DNA from: an uncultured delta proteobacterium
Lineage (GTDB): Bacteria; Desulfobacterota; Binatia; Binatales; Binataceae
Reading direction: 5' to 3'
Assembly (NCBI GenBank): GCA_963808235.1
Contig: CAWEEQ010000001.1
Location: forward strand, 96,001 to 160,000
DNA length: 64,000 bases
Positions 24,562-58,637 of the stretch are shown piece after piece; positions within the stretch are counted from its first letter, which is position 1; each line of letters opens with the position of its first letter. The notes under the pieces are model-generated. The model worked only from the letters and a program-made list of their open reading frames with translations. It did not search any database and was not told the DNA's origin. The translations under genes and the position numbers were made by a program.

Positions 24562-24594
24562 CTGGTTGACAACCGGTCATATGTATTGTAATAT
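24562..24594 (+). promoter_or_regulatory. sigma70 promoter TTGACA-17-TAATAT with palindromic operator over the -35
   Basis: CTGGTTGACAACCGG at 24562-24576; TAATAT at 24589-24594. Confidence 0.7.
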
Positions 24595-24634
24595 GACAGT
24601 TATCAACAAACTCCGCTCGAGAAGAGGGGCTTAT

Positions 24635-25723
24635 ATGCAATATGCCGCACAATCAGAGTCATCGTTCCATACTGACGCGTCCACACTTGCGCATAGGGAG
24701 TTCTTCGCTTGCGAAGAAGCATTGATCGGAGAAAGCGGCGCGATGCTACGCTTGCGTCGCGAGTTAGAGGAAGCAGCGCGGGTCGACTGCACGGTCTTGA
24801 TCACGGGTGAGACAGGGACCGGCAAGGGAGTTGTGGCTCGAGCGATTCACCGGCTTTCCGACCGACGTAATGGAGAATTCGTCCATATGGATTGTGGACT
24901 GCTCTCGCCTGGTCTCGTCGAAAGCGAAATGTTCGGCCACGAACGTGGTTCATTTACAGGCGCAGTCGGTACTCGACCCGGGCGTTTCGAACTTGCGAGC
25001 AGCGGCTCCATTTTCCTCGATGAGATTGGGGACATGGATCTCGCCCTTCAGCGCAAGCTGTTGCGGGTACTTCAAGACCATCAGTTCGAGCGTGTCGGAG
25101 GAACTCGAACGCTCAAGATGACTGCGCGCGTGATCGCCGCGACTAACTGCGACCTCTCTTTGGCGATACAACAAGGAAGGTTCAGATCAGATCTTTATTT
25201 TCGCCTGAACGTGTTGCAGATCAATGTTCCGCCCTTAAGGGAAAGGCGTTCTGACATTCCGTTACTTTTCACACACTACCTTCGTGCAATCGCCGCACAG
25301 CGTGGAATGGCAGTGCCGACGGTCTCCGAATCGTCGATTTCGCGATTGACTGAATATGAATGGTTCGGAAATGTCCGCGAATTGATCAACGTCGTAGAGC
25401 GGTTGCTTGTACGTTATAGCCTTTGCGAACAGAGCGGGCACGACTTGACGGAGATGCTGGACGGCAGCACGACCTTCGGGCCTAGAGCATGCGCGGCGCG
25501 ACCAGAAAGAATCTCTAAGGCCGACGAGCTCATTGAAGGGCGTGACCTCCGTCCTGCATCCACAGTAGACCAATGGCAGCCGTATCGAGACCAGCTGCTC
25601 GATGTGCTGCGTTCGACTGGAGGCAATGTAGCGCGAGCGTCTCGACGACTGGGAATTCCTCGAAGCACGCTTCGCTATTGGCTCACGCGATACTCATTGG
25701 AGAATGTAATTTCTCGCGACTGA
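24635..25723 (+). CDS. sigma54-dependent enhancer-binding protein (AAA+ plus Fis HTH), no N-terminal sensor domain
   Basis: GETGTGK, GSFTGA, FLDEIG, RSDLYFRLNV, GNVREL, GGNVARASRRLGI. Confidence 0.92.
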   Translation: MQYAAQSESSFHTDASTLAHREFFACEEALIGESGAMLRLRRELEEAARVDCTVLITGETGTGKGVVARAIHRLSDRRNGEFVHMDCGLLSPGLVESEMFGHERGSFTGAVGTRPGRFELASSGSIFLDEIGDMDLALQRKLLRVLQDHQFERVGGTRTLKMTARVIAATNCDLSLAIQQGRFRSDLYFRLNVLQINVPPLRERRSDIPLLFTHYLRAIAAQRGMAVPTVSESSISRLTEYEWFGNVRELINVVERLLVRYSLCEQSGHDLTEMLDGSTTFGPRACAARPERISKADELIEGRDLRPASTVDQWQPYRDQLLDVLRSTGGNVARASRRLGIPRSTLRYWLTRYSLENVISRD

Positions 25724-25824
25724 AACACATGGCAACGCGTCTCGCGAGTGTTTGCGCTCGGGCTTGAGCTGGTCGAAGCGCATGTACAATTACAGAGTCG
25801 GCAGCAGAACTGCGGCCCCGACTC

Positions 25825-26874
25825 CTACGATCCAGTCGTGAGCACGATCTTCCCAGTCACCTGGGAGTCTCCGAGCAGCCGATGGCTGGTGGTGGCTTCC
25901 TCCAGTGGAAGGCATCGATCAATCACCGGCCGTAGCCTTCCGGCTGCACACAGTTCCAGGAGGGTTCGCAAATCTTCGTGATACCAATCGGGGCGGACCT
26001 TGCAGAGATTCTGGGCGCTGTACCCGAAGATTCCTTTGTTCTGGGGCATCAGCTCGAGGGGACTTGGCCGCGGGTTCCTAAGCAACTCGACTAGAGTTTT
26101 AAGCGGCCTTCTCCTTCCCTGGCTTGTAGCGGCTGAGAATCCGTAGCCAACCAGGAGACCCCCTTGTGAAAGCGCCTGAAAGGAGCGGCGCCAATAGGAA
26201 CCGCCCACTGGATCGAAAACGACATCGACCCCCCGACCCGTCTCACGACGAACTATCTCGACGAAATCCTCGTGATGATAATCGATCGGCCGTGCGCCAT
26301 ACTTTCTCACCAGTTCGTGTTTTTGACTGGAGGCCGTTCCCCACACCGTGAGTTTCATCCAAAGCGCCAAGTCCAGTAACGCGGTGCCTACGCCTCCCGC
26401 CGCCCCGTGCACAAGTATGGTCTGCCCTTCTTGCAGATGAGCCACTCGCGACAACATCTGGTAGGCGGTCAAATAGTTCACCACGAGTGCTGCTGCGTCG
26501 ATGTCTCCAACCCGCTCGGGAACCTTCACAGCTCGCCAGGCATCAACTACCAGTGACTCGGTATAACCGCCGAAACCACACAGGACCGCTACCCTATCTC
26601 CAACTCTCAGATCGTTCACTTGTGCGCCGGCAACATCGATGGTTCCAGCGACCTCGACTCCCGGTACAAAGGGAAATCGAGGTATATCGGGGTAGAGACC
26701 TTCCCGCATCAGGAGATCTGCGAAAACGACTCCCACTGCGGATACTCGAACGCGTACCTGTCCGGGCCCGCAGTCGGGTGCGGGAACCCGGCGCATCTGA
26801 AGCACTTCAGGTCCGCCCCGCTTCGAGATAACAACTTGTCGGATTGATGTGCTCAGAGAGGACATTGCAAACAA
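25825..26874 (-). CDS. MDR-family NADPH quinone/enoyl reductase-like oxidoreductase
   Basis: GGPEVL, PFVPGVE, HGAAGGVG, GKIVL. Confidence 0.88.
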   Translation of the reverse strand: MFAMSSLSTSIRQVVISKRGGPEVLQMRRVPAPDCGPGQVRVRVSAVGVVFADLLMREGLYPDIPRFPFVPGVEVAGTIDVAGAQVNDLRVGDRVAVLCGFGGYTESLVVDAWRAVKVPERVGDIDAAALVVNYLTAYQMLSRVAHLQEGQTILVHGAAGGVGTALLDLALWMKLTVWGTASSQKHELVRKYGARPIDYHHEDFVEIVRRETGRGVDVVFDPVGGSYWRRSFQALSQGGLLVGYGFSAATSQGRRRPLKTLVELLRNPRPSPLELMPQNKGIFGYSAQNLCKVRPDWYHEDLRTLLELCAAGRLRPVIDRCLPLEEATTSHRLLGDSQVTGKIVLTTGS

Positions 26875-27059: not shown

Positions 27060-28445
27060 TCAGGAGGCTTTGCTTAAAGGCTCGTGATGCGCTGCTTCGG
27101 GGCGGGCCAGTTCGTAGCGGCTCAGGAAGTCGGTCGAGAATTCGCCGCGATTGAAATCGGGATCGTGCAGAATCTTCAGATGCAACGGGATGTTGGTTTT
27201 GATGCCGTCGATTACATACTCGCGCAGCGCAGCTTTGGCTCGCGCGATCACTTCAGGTCGCGTCTCGGCATGCACTATCAGCTTGGCGATGAGCGGATCG
27301 TATTGCACCGGCACGCGATAGCCGTCGTATAGCGCCGTCTCGACGCGCACGCCCAGCCCGCCGGGAGCATGATGGTTGGTCACCACACCCGGCGACGGGA
27401 TGTGACGCTCGGGATCCTCCGCGTAGATGCGAAACTCCATCGACGCGCCGTCGAACGTCACGTGCCGTTGCTTCAGTGGGAGCTTCTCGCCCATCGCCAT
27501 CCGGATACTTTCTTTTACCAGGTCAACCCCGGTGACCATCTCGGTCACGCCGTGCTCGACCTGGATGCGCGTGTTCATCTCGATAAAATAGAACTCGCCA
27601 TTGCCGGCGAGCAAAAATTCCACTGTGCCGACGTTCGAATAGCCGACGACCTCGGCCGCGCGCACAGCAGCCCTGCCCATCTTCTCGCGGAGCCGCGGGG
27701 TAAGAATCGGGCACGGCGATTCCTCGACGACCTTCTGATGGCGCCGCTGAATCGAGCAGTCGCGCTCGCCAAGATGAATCGCGTTGCGCTGCAAGTCGGC
27801 GAGAATCTGAAACTCGACGTGACGCGCCCGTTCGAGATATTTCTCCAGGTACATTTTCCTTGAACTGAACGACGCCTCGGATTCGCCTTGCGCCAGCGGA
27901 AACAGACGGGTCAGCTCGTCTCCATTGCGAACGACTCGCATGCCCTTGCCGCCACCGCCGGCGGCCGCCTTGATCAGAACCGGGTAGCCGAGCCGCTTTG
28001 CATCTGCTTGAGCTTCGCGCAACTCAGTTACGCCCGTTCCCTCGCTGCCCGGAAGTACGGGGACGCCCGCGCGCGTCATGATTCGTCGCGCGCGCGGCTT
28101 GTCGCCCATCAGCCTGATATGACGCGCGCGCGGGCCCACGAAATACAGCCCCGACTTCTGACACGCCTCCGCGAAGTCGCCATTTTCCGACAGGAAGCCA
28201 TACCCCGGATGCACGCCGTCGGCGCCGATCATCGTCGCCGCGCTGAGATTCGCTGGGATGTTGAGGTAGCTGTCTTGAGCGGCCGGCGGACCGATACATA
28301 CCGACTCGTCCGCCATCCGCACATGCAGTGCACTTTTATCTGCCGTCGAATAAACGGCGACCGTCGAAATCCCCAGCTCGCGGCACGCGCGAATTATCCG
28401 TATTGCGATTGTCCCGCGGTTTGCGACCAGCAGTTTTTTGAACAT
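27060..28445 (-). CDS. accC: Biotin carboxylase subunit of acetyl-CoA carboxylase
   Basis: LVANRG, HPGYGFLSEN, GGGGKGM, RDCSIQRRHQK, EMNTRIQVEH. Confidence 0.92.
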   Translation of the reverse strand: MFKKLLVANRGTIAIRIIRACRELGISTVAVYSTADKSALHVRMADESVCIGPPAAQDSYLNIPANLSAATMIGADGVHPGYGFLSENGDFAEACQKSGLYFVGPRARHIRLMGDKPRARRIMTRAGVPVLPGSEGTGVTELREAQADAKRLGYPVLIKAAAGGGGKGMRVVRNGDELTRLFPLAQGESEASFSSRKMYLEKYLERARHVEFQILADLQRNAIHLGERDCSIQRRHQKVVEESPCPILTPRLREKMGRAAVRAAEVVGYSNVGTVEFLLAGNGEFYFIEMNTRIQVEHGVTEMVTGVDLVKESIRMAMGEKLPLKQRHVTFDGASMEFRIYAEDPERHIPSPGVVTNHHAPGGLGVRVETALYDGYRVPVQYDPLIAKLIVHAETRPEVIARAKAALREYVIDGIKTNIPLHLKILHDPDFNRGEFSTDFLSRYELARPEAAHHEPLSKAS

Positions 28446-28559
28446 CGGCGAGCGCTCCACCAGGTCAAATCACCTCGATGATCATCGACAATTCGCCGAG
28501 CAGATTCAGGTTGGGTCTGTTGACGGCCTGCAGTTAGACCAACAGTTGTCAGCAATTGA

Positions 28560-29198
28560 CTATGAAGCGATTTCCGCCGCTGGCGAGCTATCTTTGTAGA
28601 GCAGCAGGAAGTGCCCTATCTTCTTGACCCAATCGACCATCTCCAACAACTCGGGATTATCCTCGTCGCTAGGCGGGTAGAGAATTCGCGACAGCGCGAT
28701 CGCTTCGAGCTGGCCGTTTGTCACACGATCCAAAATGCGCAGCCTTTCAGGATCATATGAATCCGGGCCTAACAGCTCCTGCCAGATCCCCATGCTCGCT
28801 TCGGTAAAGCCCTGACTGATCTTCGCCACCGCCTCGCGCAGCGTGGGGTCAGTGCGGCTAGCTACGACCAATTCGATCCATGCGTGGAATGCCGGTCCCT
28901 TATAGACCGACCAGAGCGAATCGACGATATAATCGAGCCGATCGGAGACCCTTCCAAGTCGCTTCCCTATCTGTTGCGATTCAGCGATTCTCTGGTCGAA
29001 GATGTATTCAAGCGCCGCGATAACCAGGGTTTCCTTTTTCGGGAAATGATGCATTTCCGCGCCTCTGGAAACCCCAGCTCGCTCGGCGACCTCGGCTATC
29101 GTTGTGCCTGCATAGCCGCATTCAAACAGCGTGAGGGCGGCTGCTTCGAGAATTCTTCGTCTCGTCTCTGCGCTTCTTTCTTCTTGCAAGTTCGACAT
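28560..29198 (-). CDS. TetR/AcrR regulator
   Basis: AEVAERAGVSRGAEMHHFPKK; start re-set to MSNLQEE. Confidence 0.9.
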   Translation of the reverse strand: MSNLQEERSAETRRRILEAAALTLFECGYAGTTIAEVAERAGVSRGAEMHHFPKKETLVIAALEYIFDQRIAESQQIGKRLGRVSDRLDYIVDSLWSVYKGPAFHAWIELVVASRTDPTLREAVAKISQGFTEASMGIWQELLGPDSYDPERLRILDRVTNGQLEAIALSRILYPPSDEDNPELLEMVDWVKKIGHFLLLYKDSSPAAEIAS

Positions 29199-29218
29199 TT
29201 CAACTCTCTCTGGATCGG

Positions 29219-29251
29219 AGCTTATCAACCGTACTTCCGGTTGTCAACCAG
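29219..29251 (-). promoter_or_regulatory. sigma70 promoter TTGACA-17-TAAGCT for tetR with the same operator
   Basis: CCGGTTGTCAACCAG at 29237-29251 is the exact reverse complement of 24562-24576. Confidence 0.7.
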
Positions 29252-29285: not shown

Positions 29286-31052
29286 TCAAACGGCCGAAAG
29301 TCCTTGCATACGGCCCAGATCTTTGCCGATTGAGCGAATAACCCGCAATCCATTCGAGTTGAGTGCTTCCCGGCAGGCACGTCGCATTATTTTGCCGCTT
29401 GAGGTCCTTGGAATCTCGCCGGTTTTCAGCAAAACGATGGACTGCACTCTGAGGTCGTGACGCTCAGATATCGAACCCCGAATGGATGTAAAGAGTCCGG
29501 TCGGGGCTTCCGCGACTCCCCGTTCGTAGCGATGGGGTACCTCGGCCGCGACTACTATATTGCAGTCGGCCTCGTCAGAGAAAACGGCACACCGGCTCGT
29601 TCGCAGCCATCGGTGACTTTCAAGGACGGTTCGTTCGATGTCTTCGGGATAGTGGTTGGCACCTCTTACAATGAGAAGATCCTTAATTCGGCCGGTAATG
29701 AACACTTCCCCCGCACAGACAAAACCGAGATCTCCGGTCCGAAGAAACGGTCCGCCGCTCGAATTGGCGATTTTGGCTCTAAAGGTGGCCTCGGTTTCCT
29801 CGGATTTGTTCCAGTAGCCCTGTGCGACATTTGGGCCGCTGATCCAAATCTCCCCGATTTGGTCTGATTCGCACTCCAGCAGAGTTTCAGGATCGACTAT
29901 CCGCACCTCCGTGCCGAGCCGTGAGAAACCACATCCAACCAGCGCGACCGAGTCTTCTGCGTCGCTGGCTTCGACTCGATGTTCTTTCAGAGCGGCGCGA
30001 GACAACCTCATAACCTCGAACGATTTGTTTCGCCCCGGGCTGGTGACGAACAGCGTGGCTTCAGCCATGCCGTAACACGGAAGAAACGCTTTCGCATTGA
30101 AGCCCGTGTCGGAAAAGCATCGGGCAAATTTGTCCAGGGTCAGTGGATCTATCGGTTCCGAGCCACAGAAGGCGACCTCCCATTGGGATAGATCAAGCTG
30201 AGCGGCGCGCTCGGGTTGATATCTGGTCACGCACAACTCATAAGCGAAATTCGGCCCGCCACTGACGCGGATCCGATACTTGTGAATCAGTTCCAGCCAG
30301 CTCATCGGGTCGCGGACGAAGTGCACCGGTGACATCAATACCGTCGTGGAACCGAGGTAGAGCGGGTGCAGCATTTGTCCGATTAGCCCCATGTCGTGAT
30401 ACAGGGGAAGCCATCCGCCGACGACACAGTCTGGGCCGGCGCCAAAAGCCTCACGAATCTGCGCATGATTCGCCAGCAGGTTCCCGTGACTGACTGTCAC
30501 GCCTTTCGCGATCCCTGTTGAACCAGAGGTGTACTGGAGCAACGCGATGGAATCGCCGTCGAGGGGGGGCGGATACCAGTTTTCGTTTTCGGGTTCCGGC
30601 TCGGAATCATCGGTCATCAGCCAGCGAACGTCCTTGAACGCCGGGCATTGCTCCAGCGCGCCTTCCGCGAGCGAGCTAAGCGATTTGGTGGTTAACGCGA
30701 CTGCGGCGTCGCAGTCGGAAATTATCGTGCGCAATCGAGCAAAGGATCTTTCCAACCGGCGAGGGCTGGGGCACAGCGCCGGAACCGCGATCATCCCGGC
30801 ATACAGACATCCGAAAAAGCCCTCTATGAAATCCAGTCCCGGCGGATACAACAGAATCACCCGATCGCCATGACCGGCGATCCGCCGGAGCCGTGTAGCT
30901 ATAACGCGTGCTCGGTGGTCGAGTTCTCTGTAAGAGAGGTTGGGCACGGAGCCGTGCTCGCCTGCGTAGACCACCGAAAGTGCGTCTCCGCGACGGGCGG
31001 CATGGCGATTCAGCATCTCAACCAGGCTGATGGGTTGACTTTCAAGGCCCAT
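29286..31052 (-). CDS. Fatty acyl-AMP ligase (FAAL) 2
   Basis: LQYTSGSTG, WLPLYHDMGL, PCYGMAEATL, RTGDLGF, RTSSGK. Confidence 0.92.
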   Translation of the reverse strand: MGLESQPISLVEMLNRHAARRGDALSVVYAGEHGSVPNLSYRELDHRARVIATRLRRIAGHGDRVILLYPPGLDFIEGFFGCLYAGMIAVPALCPSPRRLERSFARLRTIISDCDAAVALTTKSLSSLAEGALEQCPAFKDVRWLMTDDSEPEPENENWYPPPLDGDSIALLQYTSGSTGIAKGVTVSHGNLLANHAQIREAFGAGPDCVVGGWLPLYHDMGLIGQMLHPLYLGSTTVLMSPVHFVRDPMSWLELIHKYRIRVSGGPNFAYELCVTRYQPERAAQLDLSQWEVAFCGSEPIDPLTLDKFARCFSDTGFNAKAFLPCYGMAEATLFVTSPGRNKSFEVMRLSRAALKEHRVEASDAEDSVALVGCGFSRLGTEVRIVDPETLLECESDQIGEIWISGPNVAQGYWNKSEETEATFRAKIANSSGGPFLRTGDLGFVCAGEVFITGRIKDLLIVRGANHYPEDIERTVLESHRWLRTSRCAVFSDEADCNIVVAAEVPHRYERGVAEAPTGLFTSIRGSISERHDLRVQSIVLLKTGEIPRTSSGKIMRRACREALNSNGLRVIRSIGKDLGRMQGLSAV

Positions 31053-31057
31053 CGTTT

Positions 31058-32890: not shown

Positions 32891-32945
32891 TAAGGTGCTC
32901 CCTTGTTTTCGGTCGCCACGCAATGGCGTTAGTTCGCTGGCTAAC

Positions 32946-32961
32946 TGCAATGATGGTGCCG
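32946..32961 (-). promoter_or_regulatory. sigma54 -24/-12 promoter for the FAAL operon
   Basis: Minus strand CGGCAC-CATCA-TTGCA. Confidence 0.8.
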
Positions 32962-33167
32962 AGGGTTCCAAGGGTCGCTTTCGCGCCTCGCCTCTGATCT
33001 CGCGGATGTTTCAGGGGGCGAGGCAAGTTCGGCAACATAACTGGCACCTATGATGACGAATGCTCGCCAGACTTGGCGGATTCTTGCACCTGTTGGCCAT
33101 TGCTCCCGCAGACCGCCATCGCGAAAAAATATCGGCTCACGATGCAATAGCCTCGCTTCGGTGCCGA

Positions 33168-33183
33168 TGGCACGCCGCATGCG
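33168..33183 (+). promoter_or_regulatory. Candidate sigma54 promoter for maoC
   Basis: TGGCAC-GCCGC-ATGCG (GG-N10-GC), ~245 bp upstream of the start. Confidence 0.5.
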
Positions 33184-48260: not shown

Positions 48261-48270
48261 GGCAAGCACC

Positions 48271-49419: not shown

Positions 49420-49431
49420 GGGATAACACCA

Positions 49432-50631
49432 GTGACGTACACGCAAAGCTATGACATTTCCGGGATGGATTCCGCCCTTGTTGAGCACATCACGAGCACG
49501 ATCCGGATCGGGCGCGAAAGCTTGGACTCGTGGTCAATCGACGAAAACTCGAAGACTCTCTTCATCGAGACGGGCAATCGCCAGGCGCTCGACTATATAG
49601 ACGGTTTCGTCGATCACGTCCGCGGCACGCGCAAGAAGCTGCGCAGCAAAGAGCTTCTCTCCAACTCAGCGCGAGATCTGTATCAGGGAGATATCGATCG
49701 CGACCTCGCGGAATCCGGTGAGGTGTTGGAACTGGACGCAGGCCTGGTCGGATTGCGCGGTACCTTGCTCGGACTGTTCCGGTTCTTCGAAAGCGAGTTC
49801 ATCGCGATAGCTCGCGAGTATCGAGCGCAAGAGCATCACTATCCAGTCATGATTCCGATCCGTATTCTCGAAGAGCTCAAATACTTTGAACATTTCCCGC
49901 AACAGGTAACCTTCTGTTCGCATCTGCCGGAAGACTTGCCGCTCCTCAGCGGTCTCGCCGAAGACGTCCACGCAAATGCGGGATGCTTGTCGGCGGCGCA
50001 GCGCGAGCGCCTTGCTCCGGCCAATCACGCCCTTAAGCCGGCCGTGTGCATCCCATGCTACCGGCAATACCGCGACACAACGTTGCCGCCGGGTGGAATC
50101 GCCGTGACGATGCAGAACCACGTTTACCGCTACGAGGGGGCTAACTTCCGGTCGCTCAGCCGGCTTTGGGACTTCTCGGTGCGAGATATCGTGTTCTTCG
50201 GCGAGGGCGACACCCTGGTTCGTCTGCGACAGGAGGCTGCGTCCCGCGCGATGTCGCTGTGCATAGAGCTCGATCTCGAGGCAAAGATTCAACTGGCCAA
50301 CGATCCTTTCTTTCTCGATCAATCTCGCGACAAACGAATCTATCAGCGCATGGGCGAGGTCAAATACGAACTGGTCTTGCCGCTGCCGCATCGCGGGGGC
50401 GAACTGGCAGTTTCGTCGTTCAACCTCCACCGCGACTTCTACAGCAGCGTTTACAACATTCGCATCGAAGACGGATCCCTGGCCGAGACTGCCTGCATGG
50501 GTTTCGGTGTAGAGCGATGGTTGTACGGTTTCTTGAGCCAGAAGGGACTCGACGCCCGGCGATGGCCGTCGCGAATCAACGATTTTATTCGAAGCAACGC
50601 CGCCGCGAGCGGCTCAGGACCAAACCCATGA
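49432..50631 (+). CDS. Class II aaRS-like (atypical SerRS-related) amino acid:carrier protein ligase
   Basis: KPAVCIPCY, YRYE..RLWDFSVRDIVF (motif 2), ANDPFF, KYEL, SFNLH, TACMGFGVERW (motif 3). Confidence 0.8.
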   Translation: MTYTQSYDISGMDSALVEHITSTIRIGRESLDSWSIDENSKTLFIETGNRQALDYIDGFVDHVRGTRKKLRSKELLSNSARDLYQGDIDRDLAESGEVLELDAGLVGLRGTLLGLFRFFESEFIAIAREYRAQEHHYPVMIPIRILEELKYFEHFPQQVTFCSHLPEDLPLLSGLAEDVHANAGCLSAAQRERLAPANHALKPAVCIPCYRQYRDTTLPPGGIAVTMQNHVYRYEGANFRSLSRLWDFSVRDIVFFGEGDTLVRLRQEAASRAMSLCIELDLEAKIQLANDPFFLDQSRDKRIYQRMGEVKYELVLPLPHRGGELAVSSFNLHRDFYSSVYNIRIEDGSLAETACMGFGVERWLYGFLSQKGLDARRWPSRINDFIRSNAAASGSGPNP

Positions 50632-52361
50632 CGCTCCATAACTCAGGTTCCAGGAGTACGAGTTTCATCGACGCCCTGATAACCGGAAGATGCGATTGGT
50701 CGCTCATCACGCCGTTTCCTTCTCAGCCCAGGGAAGACAAAGCGATCGGTGATCAATTTCTTCGTCGGTTTGAATCCGACTTGCGCAGCACGATCGATCC
50801 AAACGCCGGCACCGACGATGAGAAAATCGCGCTTTCGTCAATCGCGGCATTAGCCGACAAAGGCTACCTCGGATTGCGCATACCATTGGAATATGGCGGC
50901 GCTGGCCTGTCTGAGCACAACTACTTCAGGGCGCTGAGCCTCGCGGGAACCTGGTGTTTGTCGACTACCTGCACGCTGCTTGCGCATTCGAGCATCGGAC
51001 TGACCGGACCGCTACTGCTGTTTGGCAGCGAAGAGCAAAAGCGCAAGTTTCTTCCGCTACTGGCGCGCGGCGCACTGTCGGGGTTTGCCTTGACCGAGCC
51101 TGACGCCGGGAACGACTACAGCCGGACCAGGAGCGTGCTTGTGCCGGTTGATGGAGGATACCTTCTGAGCGGCGAGAAGCTCTTCATTACCAACGCACCC
51201 ATAGCCCAGTTTCTCTGCGTATTTGCCAGGTTGGGCAATGCCGTTGATCAATATGCGTTGGTGATCGTGGAGACTGATCGGCCTGGCTTTTCCGTAGTCG
51301 AGCAATGCTCCTTCCTTGGATTGCCCGGCATTCACAACGGCCTCGTCAGATTCGATAACGTGAGAATTCCTCGCGATGCCGTTATCGGCGAGCTAGGACA
51401 CGGGTTCGAGCATCTTCTCGATGCGGCGACCGGCGGCTGGATGACGCTTGCTTCGGTTTCTTCAGGAGTATCGCGCCATTGCTTACGGATATTGCGCGAT
51501 TGGGCCAATCGCCGTGTTCAGTGGGGTAGTCCAATCGGAAAGCATGAGGCGATCCAGAGGATCCTCTCCAAGGCAGCCGCTCACGTTTATGCGATCGATA
51601 ACCTCTCGAGTCTGACCGTGGCTGCCGCTGGAACTATATCTCCCGGGTTCAGAACCCTTGCCCGCATAGCCAAGTACTTCGGCCAGGAACAATGCTGGCT
51701 AATCGTCGACGATTCCTTGCAGGTCTGCGGGGCGCGTGGCTACGAGACGCTGCGCTCGGCCCGCAAGCGCGTAAATGCATGTGCGTCCGACGAGGTGCAG
51801 CATGAAGAGCTGCTGGCGCCTATCGAGAAGGTCTTCCGGGACTTCCGTCTCTTCAGACTCGCCGAGGGATCGAGCCAGACCCTCCCGCTCATGATGTCGC
51901 TCGACCTCTTGTCAGCTACCGCCGCGGAACCGTGTGGCGTTCCGTCGGTAGATCCGACGGTGATCCGCAGAAATCTGCCTCTGCTTAGTGACGAAAATCT
52001 GCGACACGCCGCCTTCGTTGGTACATCCGCCGCGCGACTCGCTCATGAAGTCCGCGCCAGTCTCAACAAATACGGTGCGGAGCTGCAGGCCGAACAGGAA
52101 GTCCTGATTGCCCAAGGCGACATTCTGACCGATCTGGTCGCGATGAGCGCGAGCCTCTCGCATGCGGGCTCCGAACATTCGGATGAACATGTGACAGAGG
52201 CAGAGCAGGAACTCACCGATCGGTTCTGTCTATACGCCGAGCATCGCATAAATCGGAACTTCGATCGAATTCGCAACCATGAGGTGGGAGCATATTCCCC
52301 CATAAGCGAACGCCTTTTGAGTGGCGGACTGGATTGGATGATGCGCGACATCGTCAGTTGA
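50628..52361 (+). CDS. Long acyl-CoA dehydrogenase with C-terminal extension (VLCAD/ACAD9-like)
   Basis: FALTEPDAGND, GEKLFITN, RVQWGSPIGKHE, GARGYE, RLAEGS; ATGA overlap with the ligase gene. Confidence 0.85.
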   Translation: MTLHNSGSRSTSFIDALITGRCDWSLITPFPSQPREDKAIGDQFLRRFESDLRSTIDPNAGTDDEKIALSSIAALADKGYLGLRIPLEYGGAGLSEHNYFRALSLAGTWCLSTTCTLLAHSSIGLTGPLLLFGSEEQKRKFLPLLARGALSGFALTEPDAGNDYSRTRSVLVPVDGGYLLSGEKLFITNAPIAQFLCVFARLGNAVDQYALVIVETDRPGFSVVEQCSFLGLPGIHNGLVRFDNVRIPRDAVIGELGHGFEHLLDAATGGWMTLASVSSGVSRHCLRILRDWANRRVQWGSPIGKHEAIQRILSKAAAHVYAIDNLSSLTVAAAGTISPGFRTLARIAKYFGQEQCWLIVDDSLQVCGARGYETLRSARKRVNACASDEVQHEELLAPIEKVFRDFRLFRLAEGSSQTLPLMMSLDLLSATAAEPCGVPSVDPTVIRRNLPLLSDENLRHAAFVGTSAARLAHEVRASLNKYGAELQAEQEVLIAQGDILTDLVAMSASLSHAGSEHSDEHVTEAEQELTDRFCLYAEHRINRNFDRIRNHEVGAYSPISERLLSGGLDWMMRDIVS

Positions 52362-52480
52362 ACGGGGAATTTCCGCATCAGGGTGCAAAAATACCTGCAA
52401 CTCCAATCGAATTTGAAATTGTGATCTAAACCCAACATCTGGCATGCAGAAATCAAAGCGACGATCCTATCAATTAAACA

Positions 52481-52523
52481 AACCGGATAGATGGTTGATA
52501 ACCATATGTCCGGTTGCTAAAAT
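52481..52523 (+). promoter_or_regulatory. sigma70 promoter TTGATA-17-TAAAAT inside a 16-bp inverted repeat operator
   Basis: AACCGGATAGATGGTT-gat-AACCATATGTCCGGTT (2 mismatches); core GGTTGATAACC. Confidence 0.7.
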
Positions 52524-52547: not shown

Positions 52548-53297
52548 ATGATTTCCAATGCAGTAGAATTCGAGCGAGTTTTGCGGACCTATCGGCGCGG
52601 CGAGTTTGAGGTCATAGCGATCAATGAAGTCTCGCTGGTGATTCCTCAGGGTAAATTCGTTGCGATAATGGGTCCGTCGGGCTCCGGCAAAACGTCGATT
52701 CTGAACCTCATCGCCGGAATTGATCAGCCCACTTCCGGGCGTGTCATGGTCTCTGGCAGCGACCTCGGCGCACTGAGCGAGCGTGAGCTTGCACGCTGGC
52801 GGGCGCACAACGTCGGTCTGATTTTCCAGTTCTACAATCTGATTCCGGTACTGACTGCCGGAGAAAATGTAGAGCTGCCGTTGCTTCTTACCGAACTTCC
52901 AAAGTCCGAGCGGCACTCTCACGTCGAGGCTGCGCTGAGGGTCGCGGGGCTCGCCGATCGCATCGATCACTACCCCAGCCAGCTTTCAGGCGGTCAGGAA
53001 CAACGCGTAGCGATAGCGCGCGCACTGATTACGGACGGCGCGATCATCGTCGCAGACGAGCCTACCGGAGACCTCGACGCCAACTCGGCCCACGAGATCC
53101 TCACATTGATGCGTGAGCTGAGCCGTCGTCACAACAAGACCGTAATCATGGTGACACATGACCCACGCGCAGAGCGCTACGTCGACACGGTGTTCCGGAT
53201 GGACAAAGGCGTGCTGGTCAGCATCGAAGATATGGCGCGAGGGCCGCAACCTCGCCCCGAATCGACGGTCGAACTCGCGCACGTCGGCCTTGGCTAG
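52548..53297 (+). CDS. ABC transporter ATPase, MacB/LolD type
   Basis: GPSGSGKT, LSGGQEQRV, ADEPTG, VTHD. Confidence 0.93.
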   Translation: MISNAVEFERVLRTYRRGEFEVIAINEVSLVIPQGKFVAIMGPSGSGKTSILNLIAGIDQPTSGRVMVSGSDLGALSERELARWRAHNVGLIFQFYNLIPVLTAGENVELPLLLTELPKSERHSHVEAALRVAGLADRIDHYPSQLSGGQEQRVAIARALITDGAIIVADEPTGDLDANSAHEILTLMRELSRRHNKTVIMVTHDPRAERYVDTVFRMDKGVLVSIEDMARGPQPRPESTVELAHVGLG

Positions 53298-53331
53298 GAT
53301 GCGGACGATCTGAATACCGGAGGCAATCTCT

Positions 53332-54471
53332 ATGGATACCCTGTGGTTGATTTTGAAAAACCTCAGACGAAACCGGCGCCGCACGATACTGACGTTGGTT
53401 TCAATCGCGATGTCGTTGTTCATTTTTTCCGCATTGGTGAGTCTGCCGGGAGCAGCGCGCGAGATGCTTGGCGCGACCGCATCATCGCTTCGCGTGACGA
53501 CTCACAGCAACGTCGGCCTGACATATCCGCTTCCCGAGGCGCTCGGACGCAAAATTGCGGCATTGCGACATGTGCAGGCGGTCGCTGCAGTAACCTGGTT
53601 TGGAGGAATATATGATCAGCCCTCCAACCAGTTTCCGAACTTCGCCGTGGATCACGAACAGTTCGGCAAGATTTGGCCGGACTGGGGCGCATCGCGCCAA
53701 TCGCTCTCTGAATTCCAGAAGAATCGCATCGCGTGCCTGGTGGGACCTTCCACGATGCGGCGTTTCCGCTGGCACGTCGGACAGCAAATCATCCTACGCG
53801 GCGTGTTCGTTCCGGCCACGATCACCCTTCAAATCGCGGGAGAGCTTGGTGAGAAGGCGGCTGATTTTCTGATTTTTCGTCGTGACTATCTACAAGAAGT
53901 CCTCGGCCAGCCGCTGTGGGTCAATAACTTCTGGCTCCACGTCGATCGCCCCGAGTCGATTCCGCGGGTGATTGCGGAAGTTGACGAAACGTTTCGCAAT
54001 TCCGAGAATGAAACTCGCAGCGAATCGGAGGCGAGCTTCCTGGGGGGGATCTTTGGCAGCTATCGATCGCTGTTTGCAATCGCCGAGGTTCTCGGCCTGA
54101 TCGTGATCGCTGCGATCGTCCTGGTCGCCGCCAACACCGCCGCCATGTCGATTCGGGAGCGACGGGTCGAGGTCGCAGTGTTGCGCTCTCTCGGCTTCAC
54201 CTCAGACACGGTATTTGTCCTTTTGATCGGCGAGTCGATACTGCTGGGCGCGGCAGGAGGTCTGCTCGGATGCCTTGCATGCTATGGCGTCTTCAAGCTG
54301 ATGGCGGTTGGCGCAGCGGCGCTGGGTCCTATGGCCGTGATCAAAATGCCGCCCTGGGTGCTTGGCCAAAGTCTCACAGTGGCGGTTCTGATTGGCTTGT
54401 TCAGCGCACTGGTTCCGGCCTTCAATGCGTCGCGGCGCAATATCGTAACTGCTTTGCGCGAGGTGGGGTAA
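53332..54471 (+). CDS. ABC permease, MacB/FtsX type
   Basis: KNLRRNRRRTILT, IRERRVEVAVLRSLGF. Confidence 0.9.
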   Translation: MDTLWLILKNLRRNRRRTILTLVSIAMSLFIFSALVSLPGAAREMLGATASSLRVTTHSNVGLTYPLPEALGRKIAALRHVQAVAAVTWFGGIYDQPSNQFPNFAVDHEQFGKIWPDWGASRQSLSEFQKNRIACLVGPSTMRRFRWHVGQQIILRGVFVPATITLQIAGELGEKAADFLIFRRDYLQEVLGQPLWVNNFWLHVDRPESIPRVIAEVDETFRNSENETRSESEASFLGGIFGSYRSLFAIAEVLGLIVIAAIVLVAANTAAMSIRERRVEVAVLRSLGFTSDTVFVLLIGESILLGAAGGLLGCLACYGVFKLMAVGAAALGPMAVIKMPPWVLGQSLTVAVLIGLFSALVPAFNASRRNIVTALREVG

Positions 54472-54473
54472 TC

Positions 54474-55637
54474 ATGGCAATTCCAATCCGATACAACATT
54501 CGCAATCTGATGGCGCGGCGCACGTCGACAATCATGACGCTGGGCGGAATCGGGCTGGTGGTCGGAATCTTCACGCTGATGATGGCGATGGTTTCCGGTC
54601 TGCGCAAGGCGATCGTCAGCACTGCCTCGCCTGACAACCTGGTCGTGGTCCGCAAGGGATCGACTACTGAAACGAATTCCACGATCTCGGTCGAACAATT
54701 CAACGCTATGCGTTTTCTGAGAGGGGTACGCCACAACGCTACAGGCGAGCCTCTGGCCTCACCGGAACTAACGATGCAGGTCTTCTTGCAGCGCGTCGGC
54801 GGCGGCAGCGACAACATAGTCGCGCGCGGCGTTCTGCCAATCGCGATGGAAGTTCACGAGGGGATAAAGCTGGTCGCGGGACGCATGTTTCGGCCGGGTC
54901 TCAAGGAGGTCGTCGTCGGCTCGAATCTGCCCGGTCGTTACCAGAACTGCAAATTAGGTTCGACCCTGCGCTTCGGCAGAGATCAATGGAAAGTCGTTGG
55001 CGTATTCGCGGCGCGCGGCAGCTCCTTTGAATCCGAAATATGGTCCGACCTTCATGAACTGATCGCCGACAGCCGGCGGGGCGATTACTATTCCTCGGTC
55101 CGACTGCGTGGCGCGGGCGGCCCCGAACGAGCCGAGCTGATCAGCCGCATCGAGCGCGATCCGAGGATCAGCCTCCACGCCGAAACCGAAACCGACTACT
55201 ACGCTGAGCAATCGGTCGCCGCAAATCAGCTTGCCACGATCGGTCTGATGCTGGCTTTGGTAATGGCGATCGGTGCGGTGTCTGGAGCGATGAACACGAT
55301 GTACGCCGCAGTTGCCGCGCGGGTGCCCGAGATAGGAACGTTGCGCGCGCTGGGCTTTAGCTCGGCGAGCGTGCTGTGCTCATTCCTGTTCGAGTCGATG
55401 CTCCTGGCACTGGCCGGCGGCGTAGTAGGCGTTCTGCTGGCGCTACCGATTAACGGGTTTACCTCAAACTTCACCAATTTTTTCAGTTACTCTACTCTGA
55501 GTTTCAAATTTCAGGTCACGCCGCAGATAGTGCTGGAGGCTATTTTGTTTGCCGCCGTTATGGGCACTCTCGGCGGTCTGCTACCGGCTCGCCAGGCGAT
55601 TCGCAAGCGTCTGATTGAATCGCTCAGGAGAATCTAA
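54474..55637 (+). CDS. ABC permease, MacB/FtsX type
   Basis: MAIPIRYNIRNL, EIGTLRALGF. Confidence 0.9.
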   Translation: MAIPIRYNIRNLMARRTSTIMTLGGIGLVVGIFTLMMAMVSGLRKAIVSTASPDNLVVVRKGSTTETNSTISVEQFNAMRFLRGVRHNATGEPLASPELTMQVFLQRVGGGSDNIVARGVLPIAMEVHEGIKLVAGRMFRPGLKEVVVGSNLPGRYQNCKLGSTLRFGRDQWKVVGVFAARGSSFESEIWSDLHELIADSRRGDYYSSVRLRGAGGPERAELISRIERDPRISLHAETETDYYAEQSVAANQLATIGLMLALVMAIGAVSGAMNTMYAAVAARVPEIGTLRALGFSSASVLCSFLFESMLLALAGGVVGVLLALPINGFTSNFTNFFSYSTLSFKFQVTPQIVLEAILFAAVMGTLGGLLPARQAIRKRLIESLRRI

Positions 55638-55639
55638 CC

Positions 55640-56869
55640 ATGTCCAGCACACCAGCGATTGAAGCTCGAATAGAAGACCTGAGCCATCTGAGCATCGTCC
55701 GCTCCAAGGCCAGAATTTCCGAGCCGAGGCGCTTTCCACGTAGACTCATATTGGCTGGTGCGCTAGCGGCGGGCAGCGCGGTCCTCTGGTTTGGGGCCGG
55801 TAAGGTGACCGCCGCAAGACCGGTGACCGTTCAGACTGCGCCGGCAGAAGAACTCAGGTCGGATAGTGCCAGCGCGGTGCTCAGCGGTTCGGGATACGTC
55901 GTGACGGATCACAGCTACGTCACCGTCGGAACTTTGATCAGCGGTCAAATAGTCGCAGAGCCAATCGAAGAAGGTCAGCACGTTAAAAGAGGCGACCTGA
56001 TCGCGCAAATTGGCGATTCCGATTACCGCGCCCATCTTGGCGAAGCCAATGCCGATTACGCTCGCGCAGTCGCAGAATCTGCGTTGGCTGATCAGCGCGC
56101 AGAGCGGATGAAGCAGCTCTATAGCGAGGGCGTGACGTCGCGCGATGAATACGATTCGCTAATGAGTTCTCAGCGCGTATCGCACGCGGCGCTTGCGCGA
56201 GCCAAAGCTACGGTCGCCTACGCGGCATCGCAGGTCAGGCAGTGCGCGATACGCTCGCCTCTGAACGGGGTTGTGTTGCGGAAATTCCGCGACCAGGGAA
56301 GTACAATCAACTATAGCGTCGAACTGCAGAGCGAAGGCGGATCAACCGACATCGCGATGCTGGCGGACACCGACAATTTGCGCGTAGAGCTCGACGTGAG
56401 CGAATCCGACATCTCGAAAGTGCATGTGGGTATGCCCGCCAGCATCAGCTTGGACGCTTACCCGGACCGTAGCTTCGAAGCGAAGGTTGTCAAGATCTAT
56501 CCCGAAGCAAACCGGCAGAAAGGAAGCATCAAGGTCGAAGTCCTGCTGTTGCATCCCGACCCCACACTCATCCGCCCTGAGATGAGCGCCAAGGTCAACT
56601 TTCTCGACAAACCCGCCCACACCGGCAGCGACGCGCCCATCGTCACCGTGCCGAAGGCTGCGTTGTTCAAATCTGCGGATGGGGCGCCCTTCGTATGGAT
56701 CGTGAATGATGGCCGTGCGGAAAAGACTCCCGTCGAGACAGGACGCCAGGTCGCCGACAACGTACAGATTCAACACGGGCTTAGCGGTTCAGAAACGGTT
56801 GTCGTCGAGCCAGGGGCGAAACTGGTTGATGGTCAGGCTGTCATCGAAAAAAGCGATACTGGCCAGTGA
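55640..56869 (+). CDS. Periplasmic adaptor/membrane fusion protein (MacA/HlyD type)
   Basis: SGYVV, EEGQHVKRGD, IRSPLNGVV, ELDVSESDI. Confidence 0.9.
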   Translation: MSSTPAIEARIEDLSHLSIVRSKARISEPRRFPRRLILAGALAAGSAVLWFGAGKVTAARPVTVQTAPAEELRSDSASAVLSGSGYVVTDHSYVTVGTLISGQIVAEPIEEGQHVKRGDLIAQIGDSDYRAHLGEANADYARAVAESALADQRAERMKQLYSEGVTSRDEYDSLMSSQRVSHAALARAKATVAYAASQVRQCAIRSPLNGVVLRKFRDQGSTINYSVELQSEGGSTDIAMLADTDNLRVELDVSESDISKVHVGMPASISLDAYPDRSFEAKVVKIYPEANRQKGSIKVEVLLLHPDPTLIRPEMSAKVNFLDKPAHTGSDAPIVTVPKAALFKSADGAPFVWIVNDGRAEKTPVETGRQVADNVQIQHGLSGSETVVVEPGAKLVDGQAVIEKSDTGQ

Positions 56870-56884
56870 TGCGACTGCGAGCGG

Positions 56885-57664
56885 GTGAACGGCATGGGCG
56901 GCCACTGGAAAATCAGTCCAGGAGAAGTTCATCTTTGGGTCGCGGAGACGAATGCTTTCAGCGATCCCGCGCTGCTCCACGCCTGCGCCCCGCTGCTCGA
57001 TGACGATGAACTTGAAACACTGGGCAAACTTCGTGTTCAGAGCAAGCGTAACGAATTCCTCACAGCGCATGCGCTCTTACGTACAACTCTTTCTCACTAC
57101 TCGAATGTAGATCCGCACGACTGGCGCTTTCGTCGCCGCAAATACGGTAAGCCCGAGGTCTCGGCGCCGCCCGTGACCTCGCCGCCACGCTTCAATCTGT
57201 CGCATGCTGACGGGCTGGCAGTCTGTGCAATTGCGTGTGGCCCGGTGGGTGTAGATGTCGAGCAAATTAGTTCCTCTATTCCTGCGGCGGAAATCGCGGA
57301 GCGGTTTTTCACGCCAGAAGAAGCGAAGTCACTAGTTCAACTTGCTGCAGAAGACGCGCTCCAACGATTTTTCGAACTTTGGACTCTCAAGGAAGCGTTT
57401 TCCAAAGCGCTCGGCTGCGGAATCACGATCGGGTTCGATCGATTCCGATTCATCGTTGAAGACGGATCCTACCCGAAGTTTCCTGCGATCCTTGACTGCC
57501 TCCGCCCGCAAGATCCAAGTTCCAAGTGGAATTTCGTCCTCCTGCGCCCGTTCCCATCGCACATCGTGGCACTCGCAACTCAGGGGATCAGTAAGGTGAC
57601 CGTACGTTTGGGTGGTGTGCAATCGACCCTCCGGCACGAACCTGAAGCTGGACAACACATTTGA
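56885..57664 (+). CDS. Sfp-type 4'-phosphopantetheinyl transferase
   Basis: YGKP, FNLSH, VGVDVE, LWTLKEAFSKALG. Confidence 0.92.
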   Translation: MNGMGGHWKISPGEVHLWVAETNAFSDPALLHACAPLLDDDELETLGKLRVQSKRNEFLTAHALLRTTLSHYSNVDPHDWRFRRRKYGKPEVSAPPVTSPPRFNLSHADGLAVCAIACGPVGVDVEQISSSIPAAEIAERFFTPEEAKSLVQLAAEDALQRFFELWTLKEAFSKALGCGITIGFDRFRFIVEDGSYPKFPAILDCLRPQDPSSKWNFVLLRPFPSHIVALATQGISKVTVRLGGVQSTLRHEPEAGQHI

Positions 57665-57686
57665 TACGTCGAAGAGAGATAGTTCG

Positions 57687-58637
57687 ATGAAATCCAATTC
57701 AGCGCCAGGCTTGGCAGGTCTGCTCGGCGAAACTCGTATGTTCGGCGAGGTTGCATCGTTCGCTCTCTACGGTCTCTTCCACCGGGCGCGTCCAAACGAG
57801 CGTCGTCAGGGGCGGGGAATTTTGCTGATACCCGGTTTCGGTGCTGGAGATCTAAGTCTGAGCCTGCTCGGCCATAGACTCGGCGAGCTTGACTACAGAA
57901 TTTTTTTCAGCGGCATTTGGTGCAACGCGGATTACCCGGTTCATACGCTGCCGCGATTGGAAAACGTTCTGCGCGAGGCGAATCGGAGAACCCACGGAAG
58001 GATCGTCATCGTAGGCCACAGCCTCGGTGGTATCTACGCACGTGAGCTTGCCTGTCGGTTTCCCGATCTGGTTGAGCGAGCGATACTGCTGGGTTCTCCC
58101 GTGAAAGCACCACTCGAAGGCTCGAACACATTTCTGAGACCGCTCTTTGAATGGGTGCAAAGGCGATGGGTCGCTAAGTTTGCAGCGGCGTCTGGCCCGA
58201 CGGAAGTTGAGATGAGTCCTGTACCTCCGCGCGTTCCCGAGACACTCATTTACTCGAAGACTGATGGCGTAGTTCAATGGCAGCACTGCGTCGAATCAGG
58301 GCCGCGCGTGGAGGCGGTCGAGGTACCGTCCAGCCACTGTGGGCTTCCGTTCCATCCGGAGGTTTTCGAAATAATCGTCGAGCGGCTCGCGCGACGCTCT
58401 GGGCGCGGCCGTCTTGTCGCGGCCAATTCCGAACTTCCGAAACATCGCCCGTTCCACCGAGTTCGCACCGCTTCAAGGGTGGCGGAACATACTGGCGGCG
58501 GTGAAAGCCGGTCAGAACGAATTCATGGACGTGCTCGCCAAGATGAGACTCCTCGAGGAGTTCGGCCTCTACACCAGCGCAGTCCACGCGTCCGAGGAAA
58601 TAGAGATTCACGCCTTCATCCTGGGAATAGTATCTGA
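57687..58637 (+). CDS. Alpha/beta hydrolase (lipase/PGAP1-like); 3' end uncertain
   Basis: LIPGF, VGHSLGG, LGSP, YSKTDGVV, SHCG. Confidence 0.75.
   Translation: MKSNSAPGLAGLLGETRMFGEVASFALYGLFHRARPNERRQGRGILLIPGFGAGDLSLSLLGHRLGELDYRIFFSGIWCNADYPVHTLPRLENVLREANRRTHGRIVIVGHSLGGIYARELACRFPDLVERAILLGSPVKAPLEGSNTFLRPLFEWVQRRWVAKFAAASGPTEVEMSPVPPRVPETLIYSKTDGVVQWQHCVESGPRVEAVEVPSSHCGLPFHPEVFEIIVERLARRSGRGRLVAANSELPKHRPFHRVRTASRVAEHTGGGESRSERIHGRARQDETPRGVRPLHQRSPRVRGNRDSRLHPGNSI

Follow-up and report, generated by a model that had tools for sequence, protein, structure and literature searches.

The closest described counterparts of the locus reported here are cassettes that supply extender units bound to an acyl carrier protein (ACP). 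In the clusters of zwittermicin A (ZmaG/H/I/J together with ZmaF) and colibactin (ClbD/E/F/G/H), homologues of a 3-hydroxyacyl-CoA dehydrogenase (HCDH), an ACP and an acyl-CoA dehydrogenase (ACAD) are encoded in a common order, and the loader ZmaJ is a seryl-AMP synthetase (PMC6395733). Another group of enzymes, the carrier-protein ligases that resemble seryl-tRNA synthetase (SerRS), was put forward in 2010 as connecting non-ribosomal with ribosomal synthesis (PMC4849084); a 2022 review describes characterised family members as loading Gly, Ala or Ser and gives the role of the Bll0957-type ligases as unknown (PMC9437257). In the open-access literature, no paper was found that combines a malonyl-type cassette with a SerRS-like ligase; subscription journals and supplements lay outside this search, and absence is not shown by it. 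Here we describe a cluster in a window of 64,000 nt, the whole stretch of DNA that was analysed (positions 96,001-160,000 of contig CAWEEQ010000001.1, assembly GCA_963808235.1; uncultured delta proteobacterium, Binataceae). Judged from its genes, the cluster is a real, uncharacterised and probably intact line of fatty acyl-AMP ligase (FAAL), ACP, polyketide synthase (PKS) and nonribosomal peptide synthetase (NRPS), and its main novelty is an extender cassette with a SerRS-like ligase as predicted loader.

Genes were called from a listing of open reading frames (ORFs) together with Pfam and NCBIfam family scans of the window proteins. In what follows, G000 is the genome that holds the window, G061 is the genome of a sibling from another Binataceae genus, and L numbers denote fetched loci. 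G061 carries a syntenic cluster, pieces of which lie on L035, L044 and L045, with genes in the same order and 49-81% identity; identities to the sibling refer to this copy. The extender cassette, a unit of four genes with a thioesterase gene among them in the window, is laid out as follows:

46285-47136, plus strand: HCDH-like protein in the ZmaG/FkbK/ClbD role (Pfam; 51% to ZmaG, 57% to a cyanobacterial copy from an FkbH cassette)
47167-47448, plus strand, likely start 47188: extender ACP (ANSMFAM; 47% to ZmaD, 37% to ZmaH, 60% to an FkbH-cassette ACP)
47445-48260, plus strand: standalone, type II-like thioesterase (TE) of 271 aa (Pfam; 59% to the sibling)
48232-49419, plus strand, likely start 48271: extender acyl-ACP dehydrogenase in the ZmaI/ZmaE/FkbI role (Pfam, identity, tree)
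49432-50631, plus strand: homologue of methanogen-type SerRS and amino acid:carrier protein ligases in the loader slot (PDB, NCBIfam, fold search, profile; Cys206, Asp252, Cys355, Gly357)

The gene order HCDH-ACP-ACAD-loader matches that of zmaG-H-I-J and of the FkbH cassettes, with the ligase in the place of the loader. FkbH itself was not found in the cluster; the sole match in G000 lies on another contig (C4:2.19 Mb), and the G061 genome has none. The cluster also lacks a standalone adenylation (A) domain, and its only A domain carries the code DAFFLGGTFK, as opposed to DVWHFSLIDK in ZmaJ. The extender ACP gave weak, sub-cut-off matches to NF052616 (ornithine lipid ACP) and NF005480; from the naming of NF052616, the role of some ligase relatives may therefore have been published since the 2022 review.

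The ligase ORF matches no Pfam family. Its PDB matches are Bll0957-type amino acid:carrier protein ligases and type-2 SerRS only, and a fold search with its predicted model (pLDDT 77) returned the same two families, with type-2 SerRS structures on top; by both searches the catalytic core of methanogen-type SerRS is present. The closest named homologue, from a Candidatus Binataceae bacterium, is 72% identical. The protein has 399 aa compared with 522-527 aa in type-2 SerRS; it keeps an N-terminal domain of about 90 residues in the predicted model, and the full tRNA-binding N-terminal domain of that family is lacking. In Bll0957, zinc is bound by a Cys/Glu/Cys triad. The two cysteines of this triad are kept as Cys206 and Cys355, the Glu is replaced by Asp252 in 65/65 cassette loci, and an extra Cys209 is found in 63 of 64. 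Gly357 is invariant in all 61 covered loci, at a position where the Gly-specific relatives of the Bll0957 type have Ala, and in a study of the A281G mutant Gly at that position reportedly admits Ser. A second SerRS-like ligase of the same genome (28-31% identity; G000:C4:2617306-2618646, L010) carries Glu and Gly at the marker positions and lies in a polysaccharide locus.

A profile built from 32 ligase homologues retrieved 33 GTDB loci and 32 metagenome loci (65 in total), whose counts are not independent, some being duplicates or kin. Almost all 65 contain the cassette, and in most cases a PKS lies next to it whose acyltransferase (AT) is of the type that takes ACP-linked extenders. An ACAD stands directly upstream of the ligase in 33/33 GTDB loci and in 21/21 metagenome loci with enough flank; on the same footing, an ACP accompanies the ligase in 28/29 and 19/19 (47/48), and an HCDH in 28/29 and 12/16, the HCDH missing from the cassette of L028 being located elsewhere in that cluster. 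The hosts belong to Myxococcota, Acidobacteriota, Pseudomonadota and Binatota and include the cultured Hyalangium versicolor, Polyangium jinanense, Sorangium So ce375, Granulicella mallensis, Sphingomonas oligophenolica, Pseudophaeobacter leonis and Acanthopleuribacter pedis. In a tree that took in 20 of 56 ligase-linked rows and the window, the ligase-linked ACADs form one clade (21/21 rows, support 100/99). A blastn search of zmaG-I against E. coli gave no match.

Other cluster types share the cassette. A larger one recurs in cultured strains (L013, L019, L023, L028, L029, L034, L041, L050, L053, L093-L095), with a variable starter, A(DIWQVTTDDK), A(DASTVAAVCK), ketosynthase (KS)-AT-ketoreductase (KR)-thiolation (T), and A(DVRxFALLAK)-T-TE, often with SbnA/SbnB-like, AsnB, PLP and JmjC genes. 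The architecture nearest to the window cluster in a cultured strain is that of Acanthopleuribacter pedis (L091 and L037): FAAL-ACP-flavin oxidoreductase-KS-AT(GVGDQY)-KR-T-condensation (C)-A-T-epimerization (E), followed by the cassette, MaoC and TauD.

Bearing on the nature of the extender is the AT of the PKS, which is laid out as follows:

35176-39962, plus strand: PKS with KS-AT-KR-T, in three ORFs (35176-36342, 36233-38962 and 38973-39962)
Motif positions in the PKS: KS Cys 35716; AT GVGDQY 36797, GHSIG 37130 and HAYH 37418; KR Tyr 39216; T Ser 39684

The top PDB match of the AT is ZmaA-AT (310 versus 257 bits). In the window and in 15 further cassette-linked ATs, the motif reads G[LV]G[DE][HQ]Y, not GQG, a GVG-type motif that is partly shared by ZmaF (GVGSHY) and four FkbH-linked ATs; because it replaces GQG, the AT is predicted to take an ACP-bound unit. 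Ligase-linked ATs have xAYH (window and 14 loci), whereas 4/4 FkbH-linked ATs have HAFH. The residues that precede HAYH in the window are MCQ, and the corresponding ones in ZmaA-AT are MCM (PMC4207774), which is weak evidence. In Sorangium So ce375 (G064:C1:5749445-5784607; L049, L050), an FkbH cassette and a ligase cassette lie about 25 kb apart in one biosynthetic region. Two candidate tests for an amino versus a hydroxy unit failed: the ACAD phylogeny places ZmaI among FkbH-type rows, and the Asp/Glu of the AT motif is also carried by FkbH-linked ATs. Ser and glycerate are the main candidates for the loaded acid, since the chemistry of HCDH and ACAD needs a primary alcohol. The likeliest extender is an aminomalonyl unit made from Ser, given that the loader comes from an amino-acid-activating family, and we consider such a unit reasonably probable; a hydroxymalonyl unit is unlikely, though by no means negligible.

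The remainder of the assembly line, with its candidate tailoring enzymes, is encoded as follows:

25825-26874, minus strand: MDR-family reductase (quinone/enoyl reductase-like), possible trans enoyl reductase (Pfam/NCBIfam; 78% to the sibling)
29286-31169, minus strand, likely start 31052: FAAL 1 (Pfam/NCBIfam; 71% to the sibling)
31058-32971, minus strand, likely start 32890: FAAL 2 (Pfam/NCBIfam; 71% to the sibling)
33429-34283, plus strand: MaoC/MFE-2-type (de)hydratase (GDKNPVH; 75% to the sibling; also beside the cassette in L037)
34430-34804, plus strand: acyl ACP for the FAAL-loaded starter (Pfam; GLDSV)
39959-41494, plus strand: standalone C domain (Pfam; HHIIFDHWS, HHxxxD kept)
41508-45998, plus strand, open frame from 41427: NRPS with a His-less C domain, A (DAFFLGGTFK), T (GGDSI) and a Glu-less E domain
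50628-52361, plus strand: long (VLCAD/ACAD9-like) ACAD (catalytic Glu kept, GR motif changed to GW)

The first domain of the NRPS reads VDSMYAD, has no His and is interface-like. Its best homologues are all N-terminal and His-less (21/21), the His pair is absent from 29 of the top 40, and the group to which it belongs (LPxLCAD) is one that we take to be the Interface (I) domain class. No beta-hydroxylase partner (TauD or diiron) was found by Pfam in 24.5-58.6 kb or in the sibling cluster. The standalone C domain is likely the single clearly active one, the His-less domain being a predicted docking scaffold. The A code, DAFFMGGTFK in the sibling, is presumably of the Val/Ile type. The terminal domain is an E domain by its PDB match and keeps HHLVAD; it has SIHGR where the E domain of PvdL has EGHGR and the sibling SVHGR, so that the catalytic Glu is Ser in both copies, and this position is Gly in L011 and intact in L037. 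Family scans found no type I TE or reductase domain in the cluster. If the extender is aminomalonyl, the bound intermediate would be a dipeptidyl thioester whose free alpha-amine could, by general NRPS chemistry, cyclise it to a diketopiperazine, and we regard a cyclic diketopiperazine as about as plausible a product as the linear amide.

Based on these features, there is an even chance, in our judgement, that a line with the SerRS-like ligase as extender loader combines a fatty acid, a Ser-derived aminomalonate and Val/Ile into a lipid-amino acid hybrid that is exported. Either FAAL would load a fatty acid onto the ACP at 34430, and the ligase with ATP would load L-Ser onto the ACP at 47188, where the HCDH and the ACAD at 48271 would turn it into aminomalonyl-ACP by oxidation, in the way that ZmaG/ZmaI follow ZmaJ. 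The in-cis AT and the KS would then extend the chain once, and the KR would give a 2-amino-3-hydroxyacyl thioester, i.e., a long-chain beta-hydroxy-alpha-amino acid. The standalone C domain would couple this unit to Val/Ile on A-T, with the His-less domain as a scaffold. Finally, release would come about through hydrolysis of the dipeptidyl thioester by the standalone TE or through closure of a 2,5-diketopiperazine by its free alpha-amine, possibly with help from the Glu-less E domain. The long ACAD, MaoC and MDR proteins likely adjust the unsaturation or hydroxylation of the chain. A broader and more tentative proposal, to which we give rather less than an even chance, is that a tRNA-synthetase paralogue loading Ser for aminomalonyl-ACP constitutes a widespread third route to ACP-bound extenders in four phyla, and that the product here is a lipid diketopiperazine released free of a thioesterase.

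The original prediction, made from the sequence of the window, had proposed a linear, sphingoid-like 2-amino-3-hydroxyacyl amide of one branched aliphatic amino acid. Every part that it listed is present by Pfam and NCBIfam, and both a single extension of the FAAL-loaded chain and the KR step, for which the motif set is intact by comparison, are supported at the level of domains and motifs. Its aminomalonyl extender holds insofar as an ACP-linked unit is indicated by the ZmaA-AT match and the GVG motif and the loader family makes the amino form likelier than the hydroxy form. The amide agrees with the one active C domain and the presumed Val/Ile reading of the A code, and release in a cluster with no type I TE is left unaccounted for. 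The proposed end product is thus reasonable up to the extended acyl unit; because a type I TE is lacking and the long ACAD, MaoC and MDR are conserved as chain-editing enzymes, the linear amide is only one of several possible products.

Several observations weigh against the ligase-loaded pathway proposed above. The ligase scores 142 bits against NF005479 (cut-off 357 bits) and 102-121 bits against the NCBIfam models for type-2 SerRS (cut-offs 490-611), below the cut-offs in each case, and its pocket differs from those of all characterised members because of the Glu-to-Asp change and the extra Cys209. The cassette ACP, ACAD and HCDH are 60%, 50% and 57% identical to FkbH-type copies, and the ACP and ACAD are closer to ZmaD/ZmaE (47% and 41%) than to ZmaH/ZmaI (37% and 39%). 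The range fetched for L022 contains no AT other than an ordinary GQG-type one. The long ACAD, MaoC, MDR, the second FAAL and the Glu-less E domain have no assigned role, and the sibling NRPS carries an apparent frameshift of its own, a one-base loss in a C run.

The first alternative is that the ligase stands in for FkbH and loads glycerate or another hydroxy acid, so that a hydroxymalonyl extender leads to a 2,3-dihydroxyacyl-Val/Ile or its morpholinedione. We consider this unlikely. In its favour, the cassette proteins are nearest to those of FkbH cassettes, the ligase occupies the FkbH position, its zinc site has Asp in place of Glu, and the top match of the AT is the hydroxymalonyl-specific ZmaA-AT. 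On the other hand, the characterised family members load Gly, Ala or Ser (PMC9437257). In addition, the ligase-linked ACADs have a clade of their own (21/21, 100/99), the xAYH motif of the linked ATs differs from HAFH, and one genome holds both cassette types near each other.

The long ACAD is 71% identical to the sibling copy and 37% to the next homologue. GW in place of GR is confined to the window and sibling copies; GR occurs 117 times and GW once among the homologues listed, and 118/119 non-sibling homologues have GR or are unaligned. Its top PDB match is EpxF, in which Arg273 and Ser406 are both essential (PMC12624316). An EpxF-type epoxyketone synthase was rejected, as these residues align to Gly and Ala and the ACAD Glu is kept. 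A 2-enoyl starter could give a sphingosine-like 2-amino-3-hydroxy-4-ene unit, and together with MaoC could lead to a 3-hydroxy starter; alternatively, the 3-hydroxyl could be lost through MaoC and MDR. The latter idea belongs to a second alternative, which we hold to be improbable: the extender is still aminomalonyl, but MaoC and MDR serve in trans as dehydratase and enoyl reductase, the long ACAD introduces a double bond into the Val/Ile thioester, or both happen. The line would then yield a reduced long-chain alpha-amino acid or else an alkylidene/dehydro diketopiperazine, and the sphingoid-like 3-hydroxyl would be missing. MaoC (75%) and MDR (78%) are among the best-conserved genes, the PKS operon starts with MaoC, which in L037 also comes after the cassette, GW stands in the long ACAD where its homologues have GR, and an interface-like domain with no beta-hydroxylase, combined with a Glu-less E domain, fits a dehydro residue. 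However, within the flanks fetched, just 1/65 ligase loci has MaoC (that of the sibling falls beyond its flank), and action of the ACAD and the hydratase on the starter acyl-ACP is equally simple.

The two FAALs are just 40% identical to each other. Alternative FAALs that feed one ACP are known from cyanobacterial lipopeptides, which speaks against a third alternative, that the FAALs supply two chains and a C-type domain N-acylates the 2-amino group to yield a ceramide-like product. Conservation of both divergent FAALs and the HxxxD motif retained by the Glu-less E domain would suit such a product, but there is a single starter ACP and a single clearly active C domain, and we rate it very unlikely. 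The genome holds a second FAAL-ACP-PKS-NRPS-TE-PPTase (phosphopantetheinyl transferase) cluster at G000:C4:2068880-2085950, with a methylmalonyl-like AT (FASH) and an LDD-type KR.

Compared with the intact 1684-aa sibling PKS, the window PKS has two +1 bases, near 36225 and 38955. Short-read contigs lack the extra base at 36225 (run X1) and at 38955 (run X2), with one contig per site at a depth of 2.4-3.2 and possibly from related strains. The essential serS is also broken into three frames in the assembly (G000:C4:773511-774820), a sign of indel errors, while rpoC and valS are each in one piece. A self-comparison put the rate of frameshifts at about 0.14 per 10 kb (5 in 362 kb; 700/3147 long ORFs), which predicts about 0.5 for the cluster versus the 2 seen. 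Both PKS frameshifts are most likely assembly errors, and true pseudogenisation of the PKS was rejected on the short reads and the serS control. That the cluster is decaying and makes no product is therefore hardly credible to us, even with two breaks in this PKS, one in the sibling NRPS, degenerate C and E domains and the occurrence of the cluster in just 2/165 family genomes. Against decay, the reads lack both extra bases and serS is likewise fragmented; apart from the PKS, no gene of the cluster is broken relative to the sibling, the short-read contigs show zero indels in 41400-52400 where covered, the strain variants (n=58) comprise 34 synonymous, 24 non-synonymous and 0 nonsense changes, and the regulatory sites are kept. 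The least probable alternative, in which the ligase would be a SerRS copy that confers resistance to a product inhibiting SerRS, with the extender loaded by another gene, can appeal to the lead of type-2 SerRS structures in the fold search, to the retained domain of about 90 N-terminal residues and to known aminoacyl-tRNA synthetase resistance copies in biosynthetic clusters (PMC5388404), but has against it the fixed slot of the ligase after ACP and ACAD across clusters of varied architecture, the lack of a second loader in the cluster and a length far below that of type-2 SerRS.

The regulatory, export and flanking features are as follows:

24564-24574, no strand: palindromic operator GGTTGACAACC upstream of the sigma-54 activator, likely a TetR site (same place in the sibling, L044:16393)
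24566-25723, plus strand, likely start 24635: sigma-54 activator with AAA+ and Fis HTH (Pfam; 58% to the sibling)
27060-28460, minus strand: accC biotin carboxylase (NCBIfam), an insertion between mdr and tetR, outside the conserved cluster
28560-29228, minus strand: TetR-family regulator (Pfam; 74% to the sibling)
29239-29249, no strand: the same palindromic operator upstream of tetR, likely autoregulatory (sibling L045:2495)
32947-32961, minus strand: sigma-54 -24/-12-like site before the FAALs (sibling L045:6215-6229)
33168-33182, plus strand: sigma-54 -24/-12-like site before MaoC (sibling L045:6400)
34365-34379, plus strand: sigma-54-like site before the acyl ACP (sibling L045:7387)
46224-46238, plus strand: sigma-54-like site before the extender cassette (sibling L035:6597)
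52493-52503, no strand: the same operator (GGTTGATAACC) upstream of the exporter (sibling L035:13033)
52548-56869, plus strand: MacAB/FtsX-type exporter (ATPase 52548-53297; permeases 53332-54471 and 54474-55637; membrane fusion protein 55640-56869)
56885-57664, plus strand: Sfp/HetI-type PPTase (Pfam/NCBIfam)
57612-58637, plus strand: alpha/beta hydrolase (Pfam; no counterpart in the sibling cluster)

The operator pattern GGTTG(A/T)(C/T)AACC lies upstream of activator, tetR and exporter in the window and sibling clusters alike; the three window sites make up 3/6 distinct matches in the 4.6-Mb genome, for a pattern derived after the sites had been seen. The other three lie outside the cluster, at G000:C1:87578, C4:927406 and C4:2218660. 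The four sigma-54-like sites are at equivalent intergenic positions in both copies, and rpoN is present in the genome. The sigma-54 pattern is not above chance window-wide (11 versus 6.9 expected, with 12/100 shuffles reaching 11; strict form 4 versus 4.4) and is enriched in L045 (0/200 shuffles), so that for the window only positional conservation counts. Pfam found no sensory domain in the activator. These conserved promoter- and operator-like sites appear to tie the regulators, the FAALs and the exporter to the cluster; TetR likely controls itself, the exporter and the activator, and the activator likely drives the four biosynthetic promoters.

The FAALs, on the minus strand, diverge from a plus-strand run of MaoC, ACP, PKS, C, NRPS, HCDH, ACP, TE, ACAD, ligase, ACAD, the four-gene exporter, PPTase and hydrolase. 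The sibling order is activator-MDR-TetR-FAAL-FAAL-MaoC-ACP-PKS-C-NRPS-cassette-TE-ACAD-ligase-ACAD-exporter-PPTase. accC, which has no counterpart there, is 89% identical to a second copy in the genome (C4:2030228-2031625) and has no accB or accD nearby. Both accC and the last hydrolase were rejected as cluster genes, and because they are missing from the sibling, the conserved cluster spans approximately 24520-57660; of the extent first given, 24562..58637, the core genes stand and these two do not. The SerRS-like ligase, long ACAD, MaoC and MDR, which the original prediction had left unnamed, are all kept in the sibling. The cluster had also been called an orphan, and no characterised cluster of matching architecture was found in the open-access literature; it is not unique, given the sibling in another genus. 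A ligase orthologue occurs in 1/164 other family genomes and 0/46 of its own genus, many of these genomes being incomplete. A transposase/integrase-like remnant (23723-24448, minus strand; weak HTH_21/HTH_32 matches) adjoins the left edge and fits a patchy, possibly mobile cluster. On the other side, 59564-62686 (minus strand) encodes a repeat protein of 1040 aa that is likely secreted; it lies in a stretch of 65% GC and has zero Pfam/NCBIfam matches.

The cassette would give one ligase subfamily a concrete job that is testable in vitro with four small proteins and, if the prediction is true, it would be a direct case of an aminoacyl-tRNA synthetase core feeding a PKS/NRPS assembly line. The in-cis AT and compact loader would offer a means to put 2-amino or 2-hydroxy groups into polyketides, the ligase cassette is a genome-mining marker that Pfam misses, and the cluster, at 33 kb short enough to clone, would provide a small pathway from a soil lineage that is uncultured.

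Among known systems, the puwainaphycin/minutissamide type of lipopeptide line shares the FAAL starter, free ACP, one PKS extension followed by NRPS, and two alternative FAALs; the window differs in its single amino-acid module, ACP-linked extender and lack of an aminotransferase and of a type I TE. The Interface-domain modules (C then I-A-T-E) of beta-hydroxy-Asp/His siderophores, reportedly described by Reitz in 2019, are arranged as here, in that C ends the upstream protein and the next starts with a His-less C-like domain, then A-T-E; neither copy of our cluster has a TauD/diiron hydroxylase, and the window has an aliphatic A code and no siderophore receptor. This domain class is cited in PMC12230676. 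Epoxomicin biosynthesis is linked through EpxF, but the window cluster is without a terminal beta-keto acid module. With the Bll0957/Atu2573 ligases and methanogen-type SerRS, the ligase shares the class II SerRS2-like core, two zinc-site Cys, the motif 2 Arg/Glu and an adjoining carrier protein, whereas it differs from Bll0957/Atu2573 in its identity of only about 30%, extra N-terminal domain, zinc Glu-to-Asp and Ala281-to-Gly changes and location inside PKS/NRPS clusters. The FkbK-J-I-H and ZmaD/E/N cassettes share three genes and their order with the window, at the top identities, and the AT is nearest to ZmaA-AT; unlike these hydroxy/methoxymalonyl systems, the cluster has no FkbH, and its AT carries HAYH and GHS, not HAFH and GYS. 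Finally, the window shares with the zwittermicin A and colibactin systems the HCDH, ACP and ACAD homologues in common order and a GVG motif like that of ZmaF, and departs from them in a loader that is a class II aminoacyl-tRNA synthetase homologue and not an NRPS A domain (ZmaJ/ClbH), in an AT placed in cis and in an ACAD of a separate clade.

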